From Chiloscyllium plagiosum (Eukaryota): DNA of 20,000 nucleotides. Shown here piece by piece: positions 2,688 to 19,658 of the stretch (within the stretch, counting starts at the first letter, position 1; every line of letters starts with the position of its first letter). The translations under genes and the position numbers were made by a program. The notes under the pieces were generated by a model. The model was not told the origin of the DNA. It was given only the letters and a program-made list of their open reading frames with translations, and ran no database searches. The stretch spans positions 64,773,803-64,793,802 of the forward strand of contig NC_057718.1 of the NCBI RefSeq assembly GCF_004010195.1. Direction: 5' to 3'.

Positions 2688-4770
2688 AAATACCCAGGGG
2701 TTTTTCAGAAAGGGCTTTGGACTATCAATGGGGCCAAAGCCACTTTACATGTTGACCAGGAAGCAACTCTGTGATTTTAAAAGGCCTGTCCTGTGCCATT
2801 TGCTTTGCGGGCAAAAGTAGAGGTGAAAATCAGGAGGCTGGAGAGCGAACGAATCATCAAGCCAGTGCAGTTTCCTAAATGGGCAGCACTGGTCCTATCA
2901 ATTCTGAAGCCTGATGGCCCAGTTCGCCTTTGTGGGGATTTTAAGCAAATAGTTTCTCGCAGCTGAATAAGTACCCAATCCCTCACAAAGAGGACTTGTG
3001 CCACAAAGTTGGCAGGCAGGCTGTCCTTTATGAAGCTGAACATGAGCCATGTCTATCTGCAATTGCAACTGGATGAGGAGTCCCAGACGTACGCCTGGGA
3101 CGTACGCCCACAATTAAAACCTGTAAGGGTTTATACCAATATACAAGACCAATATTCAAGACTACTATTTGGGTTATCATCAGCCTGCGCCCTTTTCCGG
3201 CAGACCATGGAGAACGTTTTATAAGGACTACCCAAGATTGCTATTCATCTGGATGACATGCTAATAACAGGGAAGACCAATAAAGAGCACTTGGAGAACT
3301 TGTTCACAGTGCTTAACATTTCTCCCATGCAGCTGTACACCTTAGAAGGGAAAAATGTGTTGTCCACGCATCCCAAGTGACCTGCTTGGGTTATAGAATT
3401 GACAAAACCGGATTACACCTGTTGGGAGATAAAGCGAGGGCAATGAAAAGAGCCCTGGTTCTCATGTCCATACCAGAGCTTAGGTCTTTCCTTGGGTTAA
3501 TAAATTATGACTTAAAATTCATTCATAAGCTTGCTTCCATCTTGGCATGCTTACACCTGCTATTGAAAGTGGGTCAATCTTGGAACTGATCACATAGCCA
3601 AGAAGTAACCTTAAGGGAAGTGAAAAAGTGGTTTTCATCATCCAAAGTGTTGATCCACTACAATCAGAAGCGAGAGGCAGTGCTGATATGCGATGCCTCC
3701 CCATACGGTATTGGAGTGGTGTCAGCTCACTGGTGGCCCAATAGTGTATGCTTCCTGGGCTTTGGTTGATGCTGAACACAAACTGCCCAGTCAGAGAAGG
3801 AAGGTTTGGCAATCATATTTGAAAGATCCACCAGTACCTTTATGGATGGCAGTTTGTAATAGCAACAGATCACAAACCCTTGCTAGGGCTACTAAAGAAA
3901 GACAAGGTGGTGCCACCCATAGCGTCTGGGAGAATTCAGCGATGGACTTTATTCTCAGCACATACAAGTACCAACTAGAACACCATCCAGGAAGGTAAGT
4001 GGCTAATACAGATGCCCTAAACTCCTCCCACTAACAGATATTCCGCCGGTCGTGTCTCCCCTGGAAGAGTCCATGCTGGATTTAAATTTCCTGGACATCC
4101 TTCCGATCACCGCTGACAATATCTGACTGCGGACACAAAAAGATCCAGTCCTAACAAAACAAAAACAGCTGGTGGTAATTGGGGAGACAGAAGGGCCATC
4201 GCAACCAGAACTAAAACCTTTCTGGACCCAGTGAGACTAGATCACTGGAGAGGACAGCATATTAATCTGGGGAGCAAGAGTGATTGTCCTGAGTAAAGAT
4301 TGCCATCAAATACTGGCTGAACCCCACCAGGGTCATCCAGGGGTTTCTAAGATGAAGGTGCTAGCAAGAAGCTATGTCTGGTGGCCAGGGTTGAATACTG
4401 ACATAGCTGTGTTGGTGGGAGAGTGCCCAAGTGCCAATAAGTGCAAACATTATCACCAGCGGCAGCCCACATTCATGGAAACTGCTGGGTAAACCCTGGA
4501 CTCAGTAACGTGTCGACTATGCCAATCTTTTCATGGGCTCAATGTTCTGGACATTGTGGATACCCATTCAAAGTGGTTCGATGTGCATAAAGTCCATTCA
4601 GCAAACTCAGGGATGATAATTGAGAAGCATCGTTCGCGATACTTCTGGAAGTATTCGTCATGGACAATGGAATGTCATTTACTGGCAGGGAATTTGAGTA
4701 TTCCTGAATTTGAACGGCATTCGGTACTTAAGGACCACTCCGTACCATCCATCATTCAATGGTCGAATGA
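2688..4770 (+). mobile_element. pol: Ty3/Gypsy LTR retrotransposon pol, pseudogenised (RT, RNase H, integrase; Mag/K02A2.6-like), truncated at both ends
   Basis: Motifs read across stops and frameshifts: PVPFALRAKVE...WAALVLSILKPDGPVRLCGDFK; LFGLSSACALFRQTME; HLDD at 3246-3257 (decayed YLDD); CDASPYGIG; TDHKPL; integrase HQGHPGVSKMKVLARSYVWWPGL; VDTHSKW; TTPYHPSFNG. Domain order RT-RH-IN indicates Gypsy. Confidence 0.93.
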
Positions 4771-4884
4771 GAGAGACAATTTTAATTCTCTGAAGATTTG
4801 GAAATGCCAGTGTTGGACTAGGGTGGACAAAGTTAAAAATCACACAACACCAGGTTATAGTCCAACAAGTTTATTTGGAAGCAC

Positions 4885-4916
4885 TAGCTTTCGGATTGCT
4901 GCTCCTTCATCAGGTG
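4885..4916 (-). ncRNA. Hammerhead-ribozyme-like core in Penelope-like UTR
   Basis: Minus strand reads CTGATGA-AGGAGCAGCAATCC-GAAA-GCTAG, i.e. CUGANGA, a short stem II (GGA/TCC) and GAAA. Confidence 0.55.
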
Positions 4917-5315
4917 ATTGTCGAGTATAAGATTGTAAGACCCAGAATTTATAGCAAAAGTTTACAGTGTTATGTAACTGAAATTATATGTTGAAAAAGA
5001 CCTGGATTGTTTGTTAAGTCTCTCATCTTTTAGAATGGACATGTTGGTTTCCATTCTTTCATATGTAAATCACAAAACCTTTTTAAAAGTTACATTTTCA
5101 AGTGAACTTTAACAATTGGTGTCATGTCAGCCCAGATAATGCATTGAAGGTGTGAGGTGCCCTGTGAGAGACTATCTGTGCCCCAATGGTCAGACTGATT
5201 CTAATCTAAAAAAGGGATTTACAGAATCTTACATGGATTCATGCAGTTTTTGAGCAAAGTAAAATGTAATTCTGCGAGTACAAAATTCACCCCACAAACT
5301 TATACGTATACATGT

Positions 5316-5600
5316 ACATGTGTGTGTGTGTGTGTGAAGGGGGTGTGGCGGTTGTTATGACTGTCCGTGAGAGAGTGTGTGTATGTGTGTGAGTGTGAGT
5401 GTTAAGGGGTATAGGTCTGTGAGAGGGTGCATGTTTGAGTGTGGGAGTGTAAGTGTGAGCGTATGAGAGAGGGTCTGGCCTCAACAGGGACCTTGGGTTC
5501 ATGTCACACTACAGGTTACCCCATTGTACTATACACACACACAGACAAACGCACACACACAGACACTCCTACAGTCACACACACTCCTACAGACGTATAC
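5316..5600. repeat. Imperfect (GT)n / (CA)n microsatellite tracts inside the Penelope-like remnant
   Basis: Runs of TG at ~5319-5336 and 5375-5460; runs of CA at ~5533-5585. Confidence 0.85.
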
Positions 5601-5627
5601 ACTCATGCAGACCCACTCTCATACGCT

Positions 5628-5709
5628 TTGTCTTTGTAGGTTTTTTTTGACTGTTAACTGTTAGTGTGTCATTGTGTTTGTCAATTTGTATAATGTTGAA
5701 TAAAAAAGA
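5628..5709 (+). mobile_element. Truncated A-tailed insert C (3' UTR-like) at the LTR TATA-like site
   Basis: GT-rich sequence ending ...GTTGAATAAAAAAGA, directly followed by TATAAACACAGGA (5710-5722). Confidence 0.5.
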
Positions 5710-5722
5710 TATAAACACAGGA

Positions 5723-6117
5723 AACTCTGCTGTCGGAGGCAGGCACTGGTTTGGAAAGTTGATTCTGGGTCAGATGGCAAACTCTGGGAGTGGCCCCTAT
5801 GTTGGGGGTGGCCCCCGTTTTGTGAGTGGATTCTGTCTTGGAATGGACTCTGCCCTTTGCGGTTAGCACTTCACCCTTATGTGTATATTGTGTTGGCGCT
5901 GTGCCTTATCATGTAAACAAGGGATTAGGGCACGTTTGTTATTGGCCACTTGGGTATGTTTTTTTTCTTCCTGGTGGTCATATACAAATAAAGTTTTCTG
6001 CACTCAATATTTCTTCACTTTTCCTACACCTACAAGTACACAAGAATGCTGGGGAGAAATAAGCACCACTGCTGTTTGGCAGTAGTATGGGGAGGGGATA
6101 AAAAAAAGAAAAAAAAA
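5723..6117 (+). mobile_element. A-tailed non-coding insert B (retroposon 3' end, probably L1/Tx1-type or a non-autonomous derivative) inside the Gypsy LTR
   Basis: Ends in an A-rich tail (6100-6117). Flanked by imperfect direct repeats TATAAACACAGGA (5710-5722) and TATAAACAGGGGA (6118-6130). Confidence 0.7.
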
Positions 6118-6251
6118 TATAAACAGGGGATTTAGAATCTCCCCAGCTCAGGGGACTGACTCTGAGCTAGCTGGCTATAGCCAGTGTACTGTGCCAAAGT
6201 AAATAAAGCTTGACCTGGTGACAGGATACTGGCCTCTGTGCAGTTATTTTA
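6118..6251 (+). mobile_element. Gypsy-type LTR remnant (TATA, R, U5), probably the 3' LTR of the pol at 2688-4770
   Basis: TATAAA at 6118, AATAAA at 6202, terminus ...GGCCTCTGTGCAGTTATTTTA. Similar in inverted orientation to 6596-6647, which ends ATTATTTCA on the minus strand. The upstream U3 portion is not visible. Confidence 0.75.
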
Positions 6252-6864
6252 TTGGACGTCAAATATTTTCAACTCTTGTACACTGAGTTCTAATGTTACT
6301 TGTAGGATACTTTGATCTTAGGAATTGTTCCATCAGGGCCATGTATTTTAATCTTTGTAGGCTGTAACTTCAGTTTCTTCAGTCATGGTATCTGATCGGA
6401 CAGTGACAGTCATTCCTGTAGCAAGCTTAATGTTTACAATGTGTCCATTAATGTGGATCTCTGAAGGTCAGATCAATTAGATCACTACTGCTGTTCAAAA
6501 CAACAATTTCTGGTTGGAATCCCTTTGGCATTTTTACTAATGGATGTATATTGATTAATGCAGGTACCTCTTTTACTGATAGTTGGTGTTCTACTTGAAA
6601 TAATTCTACAGAGGCCAGTATTCTGTCACCAATCACCCTTTATTTACATAAGGAGAGCCCTTGACACTGAGCCAGCTGCCTCAGAGCCAGCTCTCAGGGT
6701 CAACAAGATGTTTAACACCCGGTTCTTTTTTTTTCTACTGGCTGTGGACCAGCCAGCTCAGAGTCAGTTTCCTTCTCTGACACAAAATGGAGAGTCCTGG
6801 ACACTGATCCAGCTCCCTCAGACCTAGCTCTCAGAATCAACAAGATGTTTAGCACCTAGTTCTT

Positions 6865-7095
6865 TTCTGTTTCTTTTTTAAAATTTTATTAAACAATACA
6901 CAGTTTACAAGGGAGTAGAGTAGCAAAGCCAGGCCCCAAACCCGACCGTTCAACCAGTTTTCAGGGAAATGAGGACAAACCTCAAATCCCAGTTTCGATC
7001 ATTACAAAACAGTAACAATGACAATTGTACATACAAGACAGTCCAATTACATAAAAGACAGTGCATACGTTACAGATCCCCTGAAACCCAGCAAG
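6865..7095 (-). mobile_element. A-tailed non-coding insert A' (short retroposon) in the solo LTR
   Basis: Minus strand starts CTTGCTGGGTTTC and ends TTTAATAAAATTTTAAAAAAGAAACAGAAAA. It is a diverged copy of insert A (8290-8480 and 7132-7160). Confidence 0.8.
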
Positions 7096-7110
7096 TAACA
7101 CCCAGTTCTT

Positions 7111-8480
7111 TTTTTCCCTGTTTATTTTTTGATTTTATTAAACAATTCATAGTTTACAAAACAATGAATACACGGAATACAGGGAGAACTAGCCATTTGG
7201 ATACAGAACTGGCTCAAAGGTAGAAGACAGAGGGTGGTGGTGGAGAGTTGTTTTTCAGACTGGAGGCCTGTGACCAGTGGAGTGCCACAAGGAGCGGTGC
7301 TGGGCCCTCTAACTTTTGTCATTTACATAAGTGATTTGGATGCGAGCATAAGAGATATAGTTAGTAAATCCGCGGATGACACTAAAATTGGAGGTATAGT
7401 GGACAGCGAAGAGGGTTACTTCAGATTACAACAGGACATTGACCAGATGGGCCAATGGGCTGAGAAGTGGCTTAATTCAGATAAATGTGAGGTGCTGCAT
7501 TTTGGGAAAGCAAATCTTAGCAGGACTTACACACTTAATGGTAAGGTCCTCGAGAGTGTTGCTGAACAAAGAGACCTTGGAGTGCAGGTTCATAGCTCCT
7601 TGAAAATGGAGTCACAGGTAGACAGGATAGTGAAGAAGGCATTTGGTATGCTTTCCTTTATTGGTCAGAGTATTGAGTACAGGAGTTGGGAGGTCATGTT
7701 GCAGCTTTTGGAATATTGCTTGCAATTCTGGTCTCCTTCCTATCAGAAAGATATTGTGAAACTTGAAAGGGTTCAGAAAAGATTTACAAGGATGTTGCCA
7801 GGGTTGGAGGATTTGAGCTATAGGGAGAGGCTGAACAGGCTAGGGCTGTTTTGCCTGGAGTGTCGGAGGCTGAGGGGTGACCTTATAGAGTTTTACAAAA
7901 TTATGAGGGGCATGGATAGGGTAAATAGGTAAGTCTTTTCCCTGGGGTGGGGGAGTCCAGAACTAAAGGGCATAGGTTTAGGGTGAGAGGGGAAAGATAT
8001 AAAAAAACCTACGGGGCAACTTTTTCACACAGAGAGTGGTACATGTATGGAATGAGCTGCCAGAGGAAGTGGTGGAGGCTGGTATAATCGCAACATTTAA
8101 GAGGCATTTGGAAGGGTATATGAATAGGAAGGGTTTGGAGGGATATGGGCCGGATGCTAGCAGGTGGAACTAAATTGGGTTGGGATACCTGGTCGGCATG
8201 GACTGGTTGGACCGAAGGGTCTGTTTCCATGCTGTACATCTCTATGACTTTGTAACTAACATTAACAGCTGGATACAAAGAAGCAGCAATTGTACAAGGG
8301 AGAGGAGCAGCAAAGCCAGGCCCGAAACCCTACTGTTCAACCAGTTTTCAGGGAAATAAGGAACCTCAAATCCCAGTTTCGATCATTACGAAACAGTAAC
8401 AATGACATTTGTACATACAAGACAGTCCAATTACATAAAAAAACAATGCATACAATACAGACCCCCAGAAACCCAGCAAG
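7111..8480 (-). mobile_element. A-tailed non-coding insert A, split by a later CR1 insertion (parts 8480-8252 and ~7172-7111)
   Basis: Same 5' start CTTGCTGGGTTTC as A'. The 3' end reads TTTAATAAAATCAAAAAATAAACAGGGAAAAAAA. It is longer than A' by an internal segment that contains the CR1. Confidence 0.8.
7172..8251 (+). mobile_element. CR1/HER1-type LINE, 5'-truncated (RT C-terminal half plus 3' UTR)
   Basis: ORF 7234-7932 contains VTSGVPQGAVLGP, SADDTK (FADD decayed), KCEVLHFG, DLGV, LEYCLQFWSP and LERVQKRFTRM. The 3' end is GGACCGAAGGGTCTGTTTCCATGCTGTACATCTCTATGACT. Confidence 0.95.
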
Positions 8481-9159
8481 TAACACCCAGTTCTTATCTG
8501 TCAACCGGTATTCCCTGACTGGGGCTGTTAATCTGGTCCAGTCAGGGAACTCACATTCTATGAGGTTCACCTAGCTGGCCATGTTACAATCACTACTCTA
8601 CTGTGTAGACTGCTTTACAAAGTATGACTACCAGTAATTCTGCTGTTCTGAAACTGTGGGCGTAATTTTCTCTGAAGTGGCAATAGTGAGAGAGTTGGGA
8701 AGATATGGTGAGAGAAAAAAAATTGGAATCTCAACATTGAAAAAAACCCCTCAATTTCTGCTTAAGTTTTAAATAGTGACTTCAGAATCTTGCCATTAAG
8801 CAGCAATGACTTTATTTCTGTGCATTTGCATCTCATGATTGACCCAAATCATCTGTTTCATAGACTGCTTCCAATTTCCTCTCCTTCCCTGAGAACCTAA
8901 ATGAAACAAATATCTGACATGAAATGCAGAGTACTGAAGGCTTGCCCCTTCAATCCCTTTTCCTCGATTGGTCTTCACTGCTGTTACATTCAATAAAGCC
9001 AATTAATGTTCACTCACGAGTGTAGATCTGATCTTACTCCATTCATTGCCTGGGACATTTTGCTAGGTTAAAAATACTATTTTTGGCAAGTTGTTTTTGT
9101 TATAAACTGAATACTCCTGTCTGTAACAACCATAGCTGATGCTTTATCATAAGCTACCA

Positions 9160-13602: not shown

Positions 13603-14270
13603 ATTGATATAAGTTTGCTCGCTGAGCTGGAAGGTTCGTTTTCAGACGTTTCATCACCATATTAGGTAACATCATCAGTGAGTCTCCAGTGAAGCACTGG
13701 TGTTATGACCAGCTTTCTATTTATGTGGTTAGGTTTCCTTGAGTTGGTGATGTCATTTATTGTGGTGATGATGTCATTTCCTCTTTTTTTTCTCAGAGAG
13801 TGAAAAATAGGGCTCAAGTTGATGTGTTTGTTGATAGAGTTCTGCTTGGAATGCAGTGCTTCTAGGAATTCTCGTGTGTCTGTCTTTTTGGGTTGTCCTA
13901 GGGTAGATATGTTATCCCAGTTGAAGTGGTATCCTTCTTCATCCGTATGTAAGAATACTAGTAAGAGTGCGTCATGTCTTTCTGTGGCGAGTTGATGTTC
14001 ATGTATCCTGGTGGCTAAATTTCTGCCTAAATGCAGTGGCTAAATGCAGCGTTTGTTACAGTTCTTGCAAGATATTTTGTAAATGACGTTTGTTTTGCTC
14101 GTTATCTGTATAGGGTCTTTTAAGTTCATTAGCTGCTGTTTTAGTGTGTCAGTGGGTTTGTGGGCTACCATGATGCCAAGAGGTCTGAGTAGTCTGGCAG
14201 TCATGTCTGAGATGTCTCTGATGTAGGGAGAGTGGCGAAGGTTTCTGGATGCATTTTGTATGCTTGTTTG
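13603..14270 (-). mobile_element. Penelope-like element (Penelope/Poseidon-like), GIY-YIG endonuclease region plus 3' UTR
   Basis: Manual minus-strand translation: PYIRDISDMTARLLRPLGIMVAHKPTDTLKQQLMNLKDP...NVIYKISCKNCNK...GRNLATRIHEHQLATERHD...HFNWDN...REFLEALHS...SINKHI. The YIG motif is disrupted by a local duplication at ~14027-14050. Confidence 0.88.
13642..13681 (-). ncRNA. Minimal type-I hammerhead ribozyme motif in Penelope 3' UTR
   Basis: Minus strand: TCA-CTGATGA-TGTTACC-TAATAT-GGTGAT-GAAA-CGTC-TGA (stem I TCA/TGA, stem II GTTACC/GGTGAT, GUC cleavage triplet). Confidence 0.7.
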
Positions 14271-14427: not shown

Positions 14428-16095
14428 GCATATGTTAAGTATAGACAGCAGAGATCGAATGAATCCCTAAAAGAGTATCAAATCAGTAGAAGTATAGTTA
14501 CAATGGAAATCAGGAGGGCAAAAAGGGGATATGAGATAGTTTTGGCAAATAGCATTAAAGAGAATCCAAATGGATTCTACAAATACATTAAGGCCAAAAA
14601 AGTAACGAGGGAGAGAATATGGCCCTTATAGATCAGCAAGGCCACTTATGTGTGGAACTACAGGGGATGGGGGAGATACTACAATAATATTTTGCATCAG
14701 TGTTGACTATGGAGGAGGATATGGAAGCTATAGAACATGGGAAAATAGTGCATTTTTGAATAACAAAGAGGATTGATGAGGGCAGAGCAGTGGACGTGAT
14801 CTATATAACTTCAGTAAGGCGTTCGACAAGGTTCCCATGGTAGACTGGTTAGCAAGGTTAGATCAAATGGAATACAGGGAAATCTAAATATTTGGATACA
14901 GAACTGGCTTGAGATAGAAGATGTAGGGTAATGGTTTAATTTAGCAAAATGTGAGGTGCAAAATTTTGGAAAGGCAAATCAGGGCAGGACTTATATACTT
15001 AATCGTAAGCTCCTGGGATATGTTGCTGAACAAAGCAACCTTGGAGTACAGGTTCATAGTCCCTTGAAAGTGGTGTCACAAGTAGATAGGATACTGAAGA
15101 AGGTGTTTGGTATGGTTACCTTTATTGGTAAGTGCATTGAGTATAGGAGTTGGGAGGTCAGTTGGGCAGCACGGTGGCACAGTGGTTAGCACTGCTGCCT
15201 CACAGCGCCTCACGGTGGCACAGTGGTTAGCACTGCTGCCTCACAGCGCCTTAGACCCGGGTTCAATTCCCGCCTCAGGCGACTGACTGTGTGGAGTTTG
15301 CACATTCTCCCCGTGTCTGCGTGGGTTTCCTCCGGGTGTTCCGGTTTCCTCCCACAGTCCAAAAGATGTGCAGGGTCAGGTGAATTGGCCATGCTAAATT
15401 GCCCCTAGTGTTAGGTAGGGGTAAATGTAGGGGTATGGGTGGGTTTCGCTTGGGCGGGTCGGTGTGGACTTGTTGGGCCGAAGGGCCTGTTTCCACACTG
15501 TAATCTAATCTAATCTAATCATGTTGCAGCTGGACAGGACATTGATCAGGCCATGTTTGGAATATTACATTCAGTTTTTGTCTCCCCACTATAGGAAAGA
15601 TGTTGTTAAACTTGAAAGTGTTCAGAAAAGATTTACAAGGATGTTAGGGGACTTGAGCTATAGGGAGAAACTGAATAGACTGGGGCTATTTTCGCTGGAA
15701 TGTCAGAGGTTTAGGGGCAACCTTACAGAGGTTTATAAAATCATAAGGGGCATGGATAGGGGAAATAGATACTCCCAATCTGGGGTGGGGGAATCCAAAA
15801 CTAGAGAGTCGAAGTTTAAGGTGAGAGGGGAAAGATTTTAAAGAGATTTAAGGGGCAACATTTTTACAGCGACAGTGGTGAGCGCATGGAATGAGCTGTC
15901 TGAGGAAGTGGTGGAAGCTGGTACAGTTACAACATTTAAGAGGCACCTGGATGGATATATGAATAGGAAGAGTTTAGAGGGTTATGAGCTAAGTGCTGGC
16001 AAATGAGACTAGATTAATTTAGGATACCTGCCTGGCCTGGACGAGTTGGACCAAAAGATGTGTTTCCGTGTTGTACAGCTCGATGACTCTGACCC
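14428..16095 (+). mobile_element. CR1/HER1-type LINE ORF2 remnant with large internal deletions and a nested SINE
   Basis: EIRRAKRGYE...IKENPNGFYKYIK, FSKAFDKVP, NLGVQVHSPLK, LEYYIQFLSPHYRKDVVKLESVQKRFTRM. The 3' UTR matches 8050-8250. Confidence 0.92.
15164..15520 (+). mobile_element. Young HE1-type tRNA-derived V-SINE with duplicated 5' head
   Basis: A-box GGTGGCACAGTGG (twice), B-box GGGTTCAATTCC, V-domain TGTGTGGAGTTTGCACATTCTCCCCGTGTCTGCGTGGGTTTCCTCCGG, CR1-like tail plus (TAATC)4. TSD-like TCAGTTG / TCATGTTG. CpGs are largely retained. Confidence 0.95.
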
Positions 16096-19114: not shown

Positions 19115-19658
19115 ATCATAGAATCCCTACAGTGTCGAAACAGGCTCTTCAGCACAATAAGTCCACACAAACCCTCTGAAAAGTATCCCACCCAGACCCA
19201 TTCCCCCACCCTATTACTCTACATTTACCCCTGACTAATGCACCCATCCTGGAGACAGTGAGGACTCTAGATGGTGAAGATCAAAGTTGAGAGTGTGTTG
19301 CTGGAAATGCACAGCAGGTCAGGCAGCATGCTTTCCTGATGAAGGACTCCAGCCTGAAACATTGATTTTCCTGCTCCTTGGATAGTGCTTGACCTGCTGT
19401 GCTTTTCCAGCAACACACTCTCAACTAATGCACCTAAGCTATACATCCCTGAACACTATGGGCAATTTAGAATGGCCAATTTACCTAACCTGTACATCCT
19501 TTGAATTGTGAGAGGAAACTGGAGCACCCGGAGGAAACCCACACAGACGTGGGGAGAATGTGCAAACTTCACACAGACAGTCGCCCGAGGCTGGAATTGA
19601 ACTCGGGTTCCTGGTGCTATGAAGCAGCAATGCTAAATGCTGAACTACCGTGCCACCC
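19115..19658 (-). mobile_element. HE1-type V-SINE interrupted by a Penelope-derived insert
   Basis: Tail ATCATAGAATCCCTACAGTG; V-domain GGAGCACCCGGAGGAAACCCACACAGACGTGGGGAGAATGTGCAAACT; B-box reverse complement GGAATTGAACTC. Confidence 0.92.
19251..19426. mobile_element. Fold-back Penelope-derived insert with hammerhead-like core
   Basis: Inverted arms at 19285-19329 and 19383-19426 around CTGATGA-AGGACTCCAGCCT-GAAA (19336-19359). ACTAATGCACC is duplicated at 19234-19244 and 19424-19434. Confidence 0.8.

Follow-up and report, generated by a model that had tools for sequence, protein, structure and literature searches.

Results

A solo LTR with repeated insertions at one site

The window, i.e. 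the whole stretch of 20,000 nucleotides of Chiloscyllium plagiosum DNA that was analysed, contains a solo LTR on the minus strand that runs from 8592 to 6596 and measures 229 bp once the inserts are removed. It consists of a 5' part (8496-8592), which starts with TG, and a 3' part (6596-6727), which ends with CA. As is characteristic of a solo LTR, these TG...CA ends are accompanied by a short flanking duplication (AGTAG at 8593-8597 and 6591-6595) and by an internal poly(A) signal (AATAAA, 6639-6644) that is in use: poly(A) RNA reads were found at 6634, and among the 24 of 2124 rows listed at least 23 RNA reads have their poly(A) end some 18 nt beyond the signal. The LTR end at 6596 was also seen in mapped contigs. 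Duplications of 5 bp are associated with Mag-type Gypsy elements.

The inserts are located at the TATA-like position of this LTR, where a 15-mer occurs in four copies on the minus strand. Copy 1 (AAGAACTGGGTGTTA, 8481-8495) flanks insert A on its 5' side and copy 2 (7096-7110) on its 3' side; copies 3 (6850-6864) and 4 (6713-6727) follow. Compared with copy 1, copies 2, 3 and 4 show 0, 2 and 1 differences, respectively. Owing to the duplication, the TATA-like word is largely re-formed in front of the insert (8481-8503), and judging from these letters transcription of the inserted element could start from the promoter of the LTR.

The 3' part of a sister LTR, referred to as plus-type, lies on the plus strand (6118-6251) and is 73% identical to the minus-strand LTR over 99 nt. 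At the equivalent site it carries ATAAACAGGG (6119-6128), located behind an A-run of other inserts, where the minus-strand LTR has AAGAACTGGG; the two words agree at 7 of 10 positions. On the same strand as the plus-type LTR, a broken LTR-retrotransposon pol region (2690-4800; Pfam RVT_1, RT_RNaseH and Integrase_H2C2 in Gypsy-like order) contains stops and frame changes throughout. It is separated from this LTR by other inserts, and no 5' LTR was seen.

Insert A and its relative A'

Insert A (7111-8480, minus strand) represents the 3' end of a retroposon with a poly(A) tail. It is T-rich and non-coding, has about 290 bp of its own sequence and belongs to a high-depth repeat family in all three contig runs mapped. 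It is split by a later insertion, a 3' fragment of a LINE on the plus strand (7174-8250, ends approximate), whose open reverse transcriptase frame (7168-7932) matches Pfam RVT_1 (E 7.3e-09). We take this fragment to be CR1, the name being given from its 3' end.

Insert A' (6865-7095, minus strand) is 91% identical to A over 206 nt, but some 65 nt found in A and in other copies of the family are missing from it. In the mapped sequences, loose ends within A' lie at 6904. The 5' junctions of A and A' are the same, with 28 identical bases (8468-8495 and 7083-7110) despite the 9% divergence; this could be due to a duplication on the spot, to a short element whose 5' end is fixed, or to joining guided by homology. 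Both inserts also have in common a letter at 6997 that is absent from most family contigs. Because of the common junction and letter, A' is probably not an independent witness of events in A, and it probably gives weak, dependent support. In the mapped contigs the depth of the A family drops toward the 5' end, and one contig diverges at 7091.

A and A' are non-coding ends, and the window holds no coding part of their family. As in target-specific LINEs of the Tx1 clade, A ends in poly(A) and is framed by a target duplication some 15 bp long, and insertion has recurred at one site of a multicopy target, as seen in the four copies of the 15-mer in the nest; this likeness to Tx1 is one of the non-coding end. 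No snRNA or tRNA head was found for A: an Rfam search over 5500-8700 gave one match with an E of 1, far below the cut-off. A slight resemblance between the start of A and U1 was discarded. Pattern scans, one for insert A and one for the LTR end, returned 0 loci both in metagenome and in viral contigs.

The tail of insert A contains the site word of the other LTR

Read on the minus strand, positions 7140-7096 are TAATAAAATC AAAAA ATAAACAGGG AAAAA AAGAACTGGGTGTTA. The 10-mer ATAAACAGGG (7125-7116, minus strand), embedded between two short A-runs, is identical at 10 of 10 positions to 6119-6128 of the plus strand, so that the claim of the earlier note, that the tail of A contains the insertion site of the other LTR, is borne out exactly. 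On both strands of the 20-kb window these are the only two exact copies; 0.05 were expected, and two or more copies were reached in 1 of 200 shuffles. We also shuffled the 23-nt tail of insert A with its composition kept and compared it with the site of the other LTR (6105-6145). A shared 10-mer of any kind, mostly A-runs, occurred in 14,048 of 100,000 shuffles and one with at least five non-A letters in 6 of 100,000, figures that exaggerate the surprise since the motif was picked post hoc. This choice is too small an effect to leave chance as the cause of the exact match.

The last G of the word lies 18 nt past the AATAAA of insert A (7134-7139, minus strand), within the 10-30 nt expected for a 3' transduction, and the 3' end of A presents non-element sequence between two A-tracts, as a 3' transduction requires. 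Insert and embedded word together are enclosed by a single target-site duplication whose two copies (8481-8495 and 7096-7110) are identical at 15 of 15 positions. Compared with the local target AAGAACTGGG, the word is identical at 7 of 10 positions, and all three differing letters are those of the other LTR subfamily. The local duplication begins right after GAT; the embedded word has its first letter at the corresponding base and so leaves out the T of TATA.

In the tail of A', a decayed AGAAACAG ends 18 nt after AATAAA (6885-6890). The decayed equivalent of the word that the earlier note had described here does exist (AGAAACAGAA, 6874-6865), but it matches ATAAACAGGG at only 7 of 10 positions and is weak when taken by itself.

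Downstream of copy 3 of the 15-mer lies a chimeric piece (6728-6849, minus strand), composed of a sister copy of the 70 nt downstream of the site in the LTR (85% over 86 nt with the site included), a fragment of plus-type LTR (6737-6768, 87.5% over 32 nt) and an A-run without a poly(A) signal of its own. Up to 6809 this piece is present at the orthologous locus of organism C. It may have arisen by a long duplication, by a long transduction with A' or by a template switch.

Copies in related genomes and in RNA

Sequences from 4 of the 24 runs listed were mapped on 5640-7173 at 80% likeness: three contig runs, one each for organisms A, B and C, and some 2 in 100 reads of one RNA run (X21). The depth over both LTR ends and over A exceeded that over the unique spacer by a factor of hundreds to thousands, which indicates that all are large families, depth being no copy number. 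Long pieces of the locus itself were recovered from organism C (6165-6809), with 28 differences over 644, and from organism B (5643-6076), with 13 over 436; the nest therefore predates these species. Loose ends at 6842 in 82 contigs (X9) and at 6697 in 93 contigs (X13), among the 24 of 2124 rows listed, reveal many LTR copies with a ATAAACAGG-like site.

Among the best 12 of 126 joints, four tie the 3' end of A (6867 or 6874) to an LTR remainder. Each of them is one best-supported row at 80% likeness, and the end joined in it may belong to a related LINE with a similar end. In the X9 joint 6705-6874 the A-run is followed directly by a ATAAACAGG-type site, starting in the same register as the embedded word and without the T of TATA, and in the X13 joint 6768-6867 the end of A leads directly into the ATAAACAGG-type site of a plus-type LTR. 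The copies of A joined to the remainder of a ATAAACAGG-type LTR for which the earlier note had advised looking are thus represented by two rows in related genomes. In the X13 joint 6704-6874, a third type of LTR site is preceded by what is left of the word, still with G letters, and by another A-run; it is a second case of an embedded word, with two G as against three in the word of A. The X13 joint 6697-6874 contains no extra word and leads into a variant site rich in A. A further three of these 12 rows are back-joints at the plus-type site, consisting of a target piece, an A-run and the target again, and the remaining five are differences among LTR types.

RNA reads of run X21 have T rather than C at 6862 (13 of 13) and 6867 (28 of 30), i.e. 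plain poly(A) at the position of the A' word. Should these reads derive from A, its current transcripts would often lack the word at their ends. They may equally be poly(A) reads of foreign origin, since at 6893 1057 RNA reads run on into unrelated sequence. No site where many molecules end was listed for the mapped RNA and contig reads.

Discussion

Origin of the embedded word

We consider it likely that the 10-mer in the tail of A is a short 3' transduction, picked up when the donor of this copy, or an ancestor of the donor, was located in a ATAAACAGG-type LTR. A copy of A residing in an LTR with the TATA site ATAAACAGGG would have been transcribed. Its poly(A) signal would have been situated only about 8 nt before the end of element and genomic A-run taken together, and with so short a distance cleavage some 18 nt downstream of the signal would fall inside the flanking LTR site. 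The RNA would then have been cut and polyadenylated after the G-run of this site. A target-specific LINE enzyme, likely of the Tx1 clade as a candidate assignment, would have nicked the equivalent site AAGAACTGGG of a different LTR subfamily, and priming on the new poly(A) would have fixed the word in the DNA. Transcripts of a copy already carrying the word would be cleaved at this very position, which would pass the word on; the word therefore names the LTR type of an ancestor, which need not be that of the direct donor.

The spacing from AATAAA to the end of the word is 18 nt in A, 18 nt in A' and 17 nt in the tail of insert C (described below), and the 18 nt of A equal the spacing of the LTR's own poly(A) reads. 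The probability of the three specified substitutions that separate the word from the local target is about 3e-6 at 5% divergence. Spacing, joints and register thus sustain the course of events outlined in the earlier note, i.e. a donor in a ATAAACAGG-type LTR, read-through, re-polyadenylation and insertion into a different subfamily. The plus-strand LTR of the window is not the donor; as a candidate it was rejected, its site being occupied by inserts other than A (joints 5705-6148 and 6015-6112). The tail can be read as a record of a hop between LTRs insofar as it preserves an LTR type; an inherited word gives the address of an ancestor and not necessarily that of the immediate donor.

Other origins of the word have to be weighed against a short transduction. 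One subfamily of A might have the word as a constant feature of its 3' end, gained a single time long ago or by convergence, and this copy would then not document a hop that it made itself. The occurrence of similar words in A, in A' and in a contig of organism C is in line with this, cleavage at a fixed distance would pass the word on unchanged, and the letter at 6997 common to A and A' and rare among family contigs is what a minor subfamily would show. We nevertheless regard it as unlikely, because three of the four A-to-LTR joints among the best 12 of 126 rows have no extra word, and the embedded words differ in length (three G in A and two in the X13 contig), each fitting the type of its presumed donor site. 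In its 'acquired once' form this explanation overlaps with transduction and differs only in the frequency of hops. Reverse transcription could also have begun on an LTR-derived RNA or slipped on an A-stretch and then jumped to the RNA of A, which needs no donor copy in a ATAAACAGG LTR. LTRs are indeed transcribed (X21 RNA), and the same nest holds a chimeric LTR piece that ends in an A-run and lacks a poly(A) signal of its own (6728-6849), yet a switch or slippage of this kind predicts neither a spacing of 18 nt nor a word that begins in the nick register of A, and donor-type joints exist among the best 12 of 126 rows; we judge it quite improbable.

Two further explanations dispense with any foreign source. 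A second insertion, of poly(A) alone, could have duplicated the local target, and the duplicate could have mutated since. The 7 of 10 identity to the local target and the three target-A-run-target back-joints at the plus-type site (best 12 of 126) would suit such an origin, which becomes very improbable in view of the three differences, all of them letters of the other subfamily (about 3e-6 at 5% divergence), of the perfect identity of the two 15-bp copies framing A, and of the length of the word, 10 nt against 15 for the local duplication. Decay of a plain poly(A) tail by chance is the least credible of all and close to negligible: half of the word is A and the motif was selected post hoc among many, but the five specified substitutions have a probability of about 1e-8 at 5% divergence over 14 registers, only 6 of 100,000 shuffles match, and a similar remnant occurs in another copy (X13 joint 6704-6874).

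RNA-target annealing

The earlier note also raised the possibility of annealing between the RNA and its target. Annealing to the read-through piece would give a seamless junction. In insert A the word was kept and is followed by an A-run and by a target that differs from it at 3 of 10 positions, and such annealing was therefore presumably not used in this insertion. A more general role is conceivable, and we put it forward with considerable doubt. Given where the poly(A) signal of A is placed, all transcripts of LTR-resident copies may end, ahead of the poly(A), in a target copy of 9-10 bases that serves as a heritable priming guide. As a rather speculative extension, the guide would pair seamlessly on matched LTRs, and a fallback on poly(A) at mismatched LTRs would leave a scar. 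Its letters would perhaps be replaced by those of the LTR subfamily in which active copies currently reside; scars would then map host switching between LTR subfamilies, an idea that we hold just as tentatively. The word is absent in both of two joints at matched sites and present in three of four other sites (A, A' and one contig). This association gives a Fisher p of 0.2, or 0.1 at best, with counts that lack power, and the co-variation of word and LTR type that the earlier note had proposed to check is accordingly not significant (p 0.2). The doublets at the plus-type site (three rows, best 12 of 126) count against a strict rule of matched and mismatched sites.

Relation to known systems

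Short 3' transductions are common for human L1: 71% (248/349) are under 100 bp (PMC13009371), short ones flanked by two poly(A) tracts are frequent (PMC13009371, PMC3649969), and cleavage is expected 10-30 nt after the poly(A) signal (PMC13009371). The tail of A resembles these in its short extra piece with poly(A) on both sides, in the position of the end 10-30 nt past the signal and in that the piece tags its source. Unlike in human L1, the cut seems to be set by A's own signal and not by a bypassed one, and the piece carried along is a target word within a repeat, which names an LTR subfamily instead of a unique locus.

Among Tx1-clade LINEs, Tx1-8_Crp and Tx1-4_AMi show a preference for particular LTR retrotransposons, while SINEU-3 has, with Tx1-Mar, tandem insertions around a 16-bp duplication in a transposon target (Kojima 2015, PMC4494074). 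The nest described here is similar in its insertions at an LTR target, in tandem around a duplication of about 15 bp. It differs from the crocodilian elements Tx1-8_Crp and Tx1-4_AMi, for which the sections consulted in PMC4494074 name neither a TATA-site target nor target words in the tail.

In site-specific LINEs, target bases at the 3' end of the RNA raise the efficiency or accuracy of insertion (PMC7265360, PMC6530143). For R2Ol, SART1Bm and R1Bm the proposed role of these bases is pairing with the target once it has been nicked (PMC6530143, PMC7265360), and 3' transduction into the target has been reported for R1Bm and, with a short poly(A), for R7Ag (as cited in PMC7265360). With R1Bm, R7Ag, SART1Bm and R2Ol, insert A would share an RNA that runs into the downstream target. 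In contrast to annealing in R1Bm and R2Ol, which would leave no extra copy of the target, the word has been retained in A, and behind it come an A-run and a target that does not match it. Among the open papers searched, judged by title and start of abstract, we found no report of a target word embedded in a tail in this way.

Short transduction, targeting of LTR elements by Tx1 and read-through in site-specific LINEs are all already in print, and what is gained is a clean natural example of known processes and not a new principle. If the transduction reading is true, the tails are lineage tags, and one retroposon family moves among LTR subfamilies that differ at 3 of 10 bases of the TATA site. 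A census of the tails in one assembly would then give the direction and frequency of the moves between LTR subfamilies, and would test, without bench work, the part of read-through target bases in the priming of a vertebrate site-specific LINE.

Neighbouring inserts and other elements of the window

A second nest (5640-6128) occupies the TATA site of the plus-type LTR. The tail of its insert C (5699-5721, plus strand) contains AATAAA (5699-5704) and then a target-like word that ends 17 nt later, which is either a second target piece that was carried along or an ordinary target duplication. The nest further includes an internal target-like word (5911-5929), an end with AATAAA (5987-5992) and a piece with an A-run (6016-6117). 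In other genomes, ends of the second nest adjoin the LTR remainder (joints 5705-6148 and 6015-6112), and several retroposon families therefore appear to use one LTR site.

The repeats of the window, with CR1-type LINEs and SINEs among them, are suggestive of a cartilaginous fish. At 13662-14039 on the minus strand, 4802-5640 and 19285-19426 there are pieces that resemble what we take to be Penelope-like elements, including a frame of 124 amino acids that had no match in Pfam, together with a 41-nt inverted repeat with a 60-nt spacer. Inside a CR1-type fragment, an exact tandem duplication of 41 nt (15170-15251) heads a SINE-like element, which is presumably a SINE.
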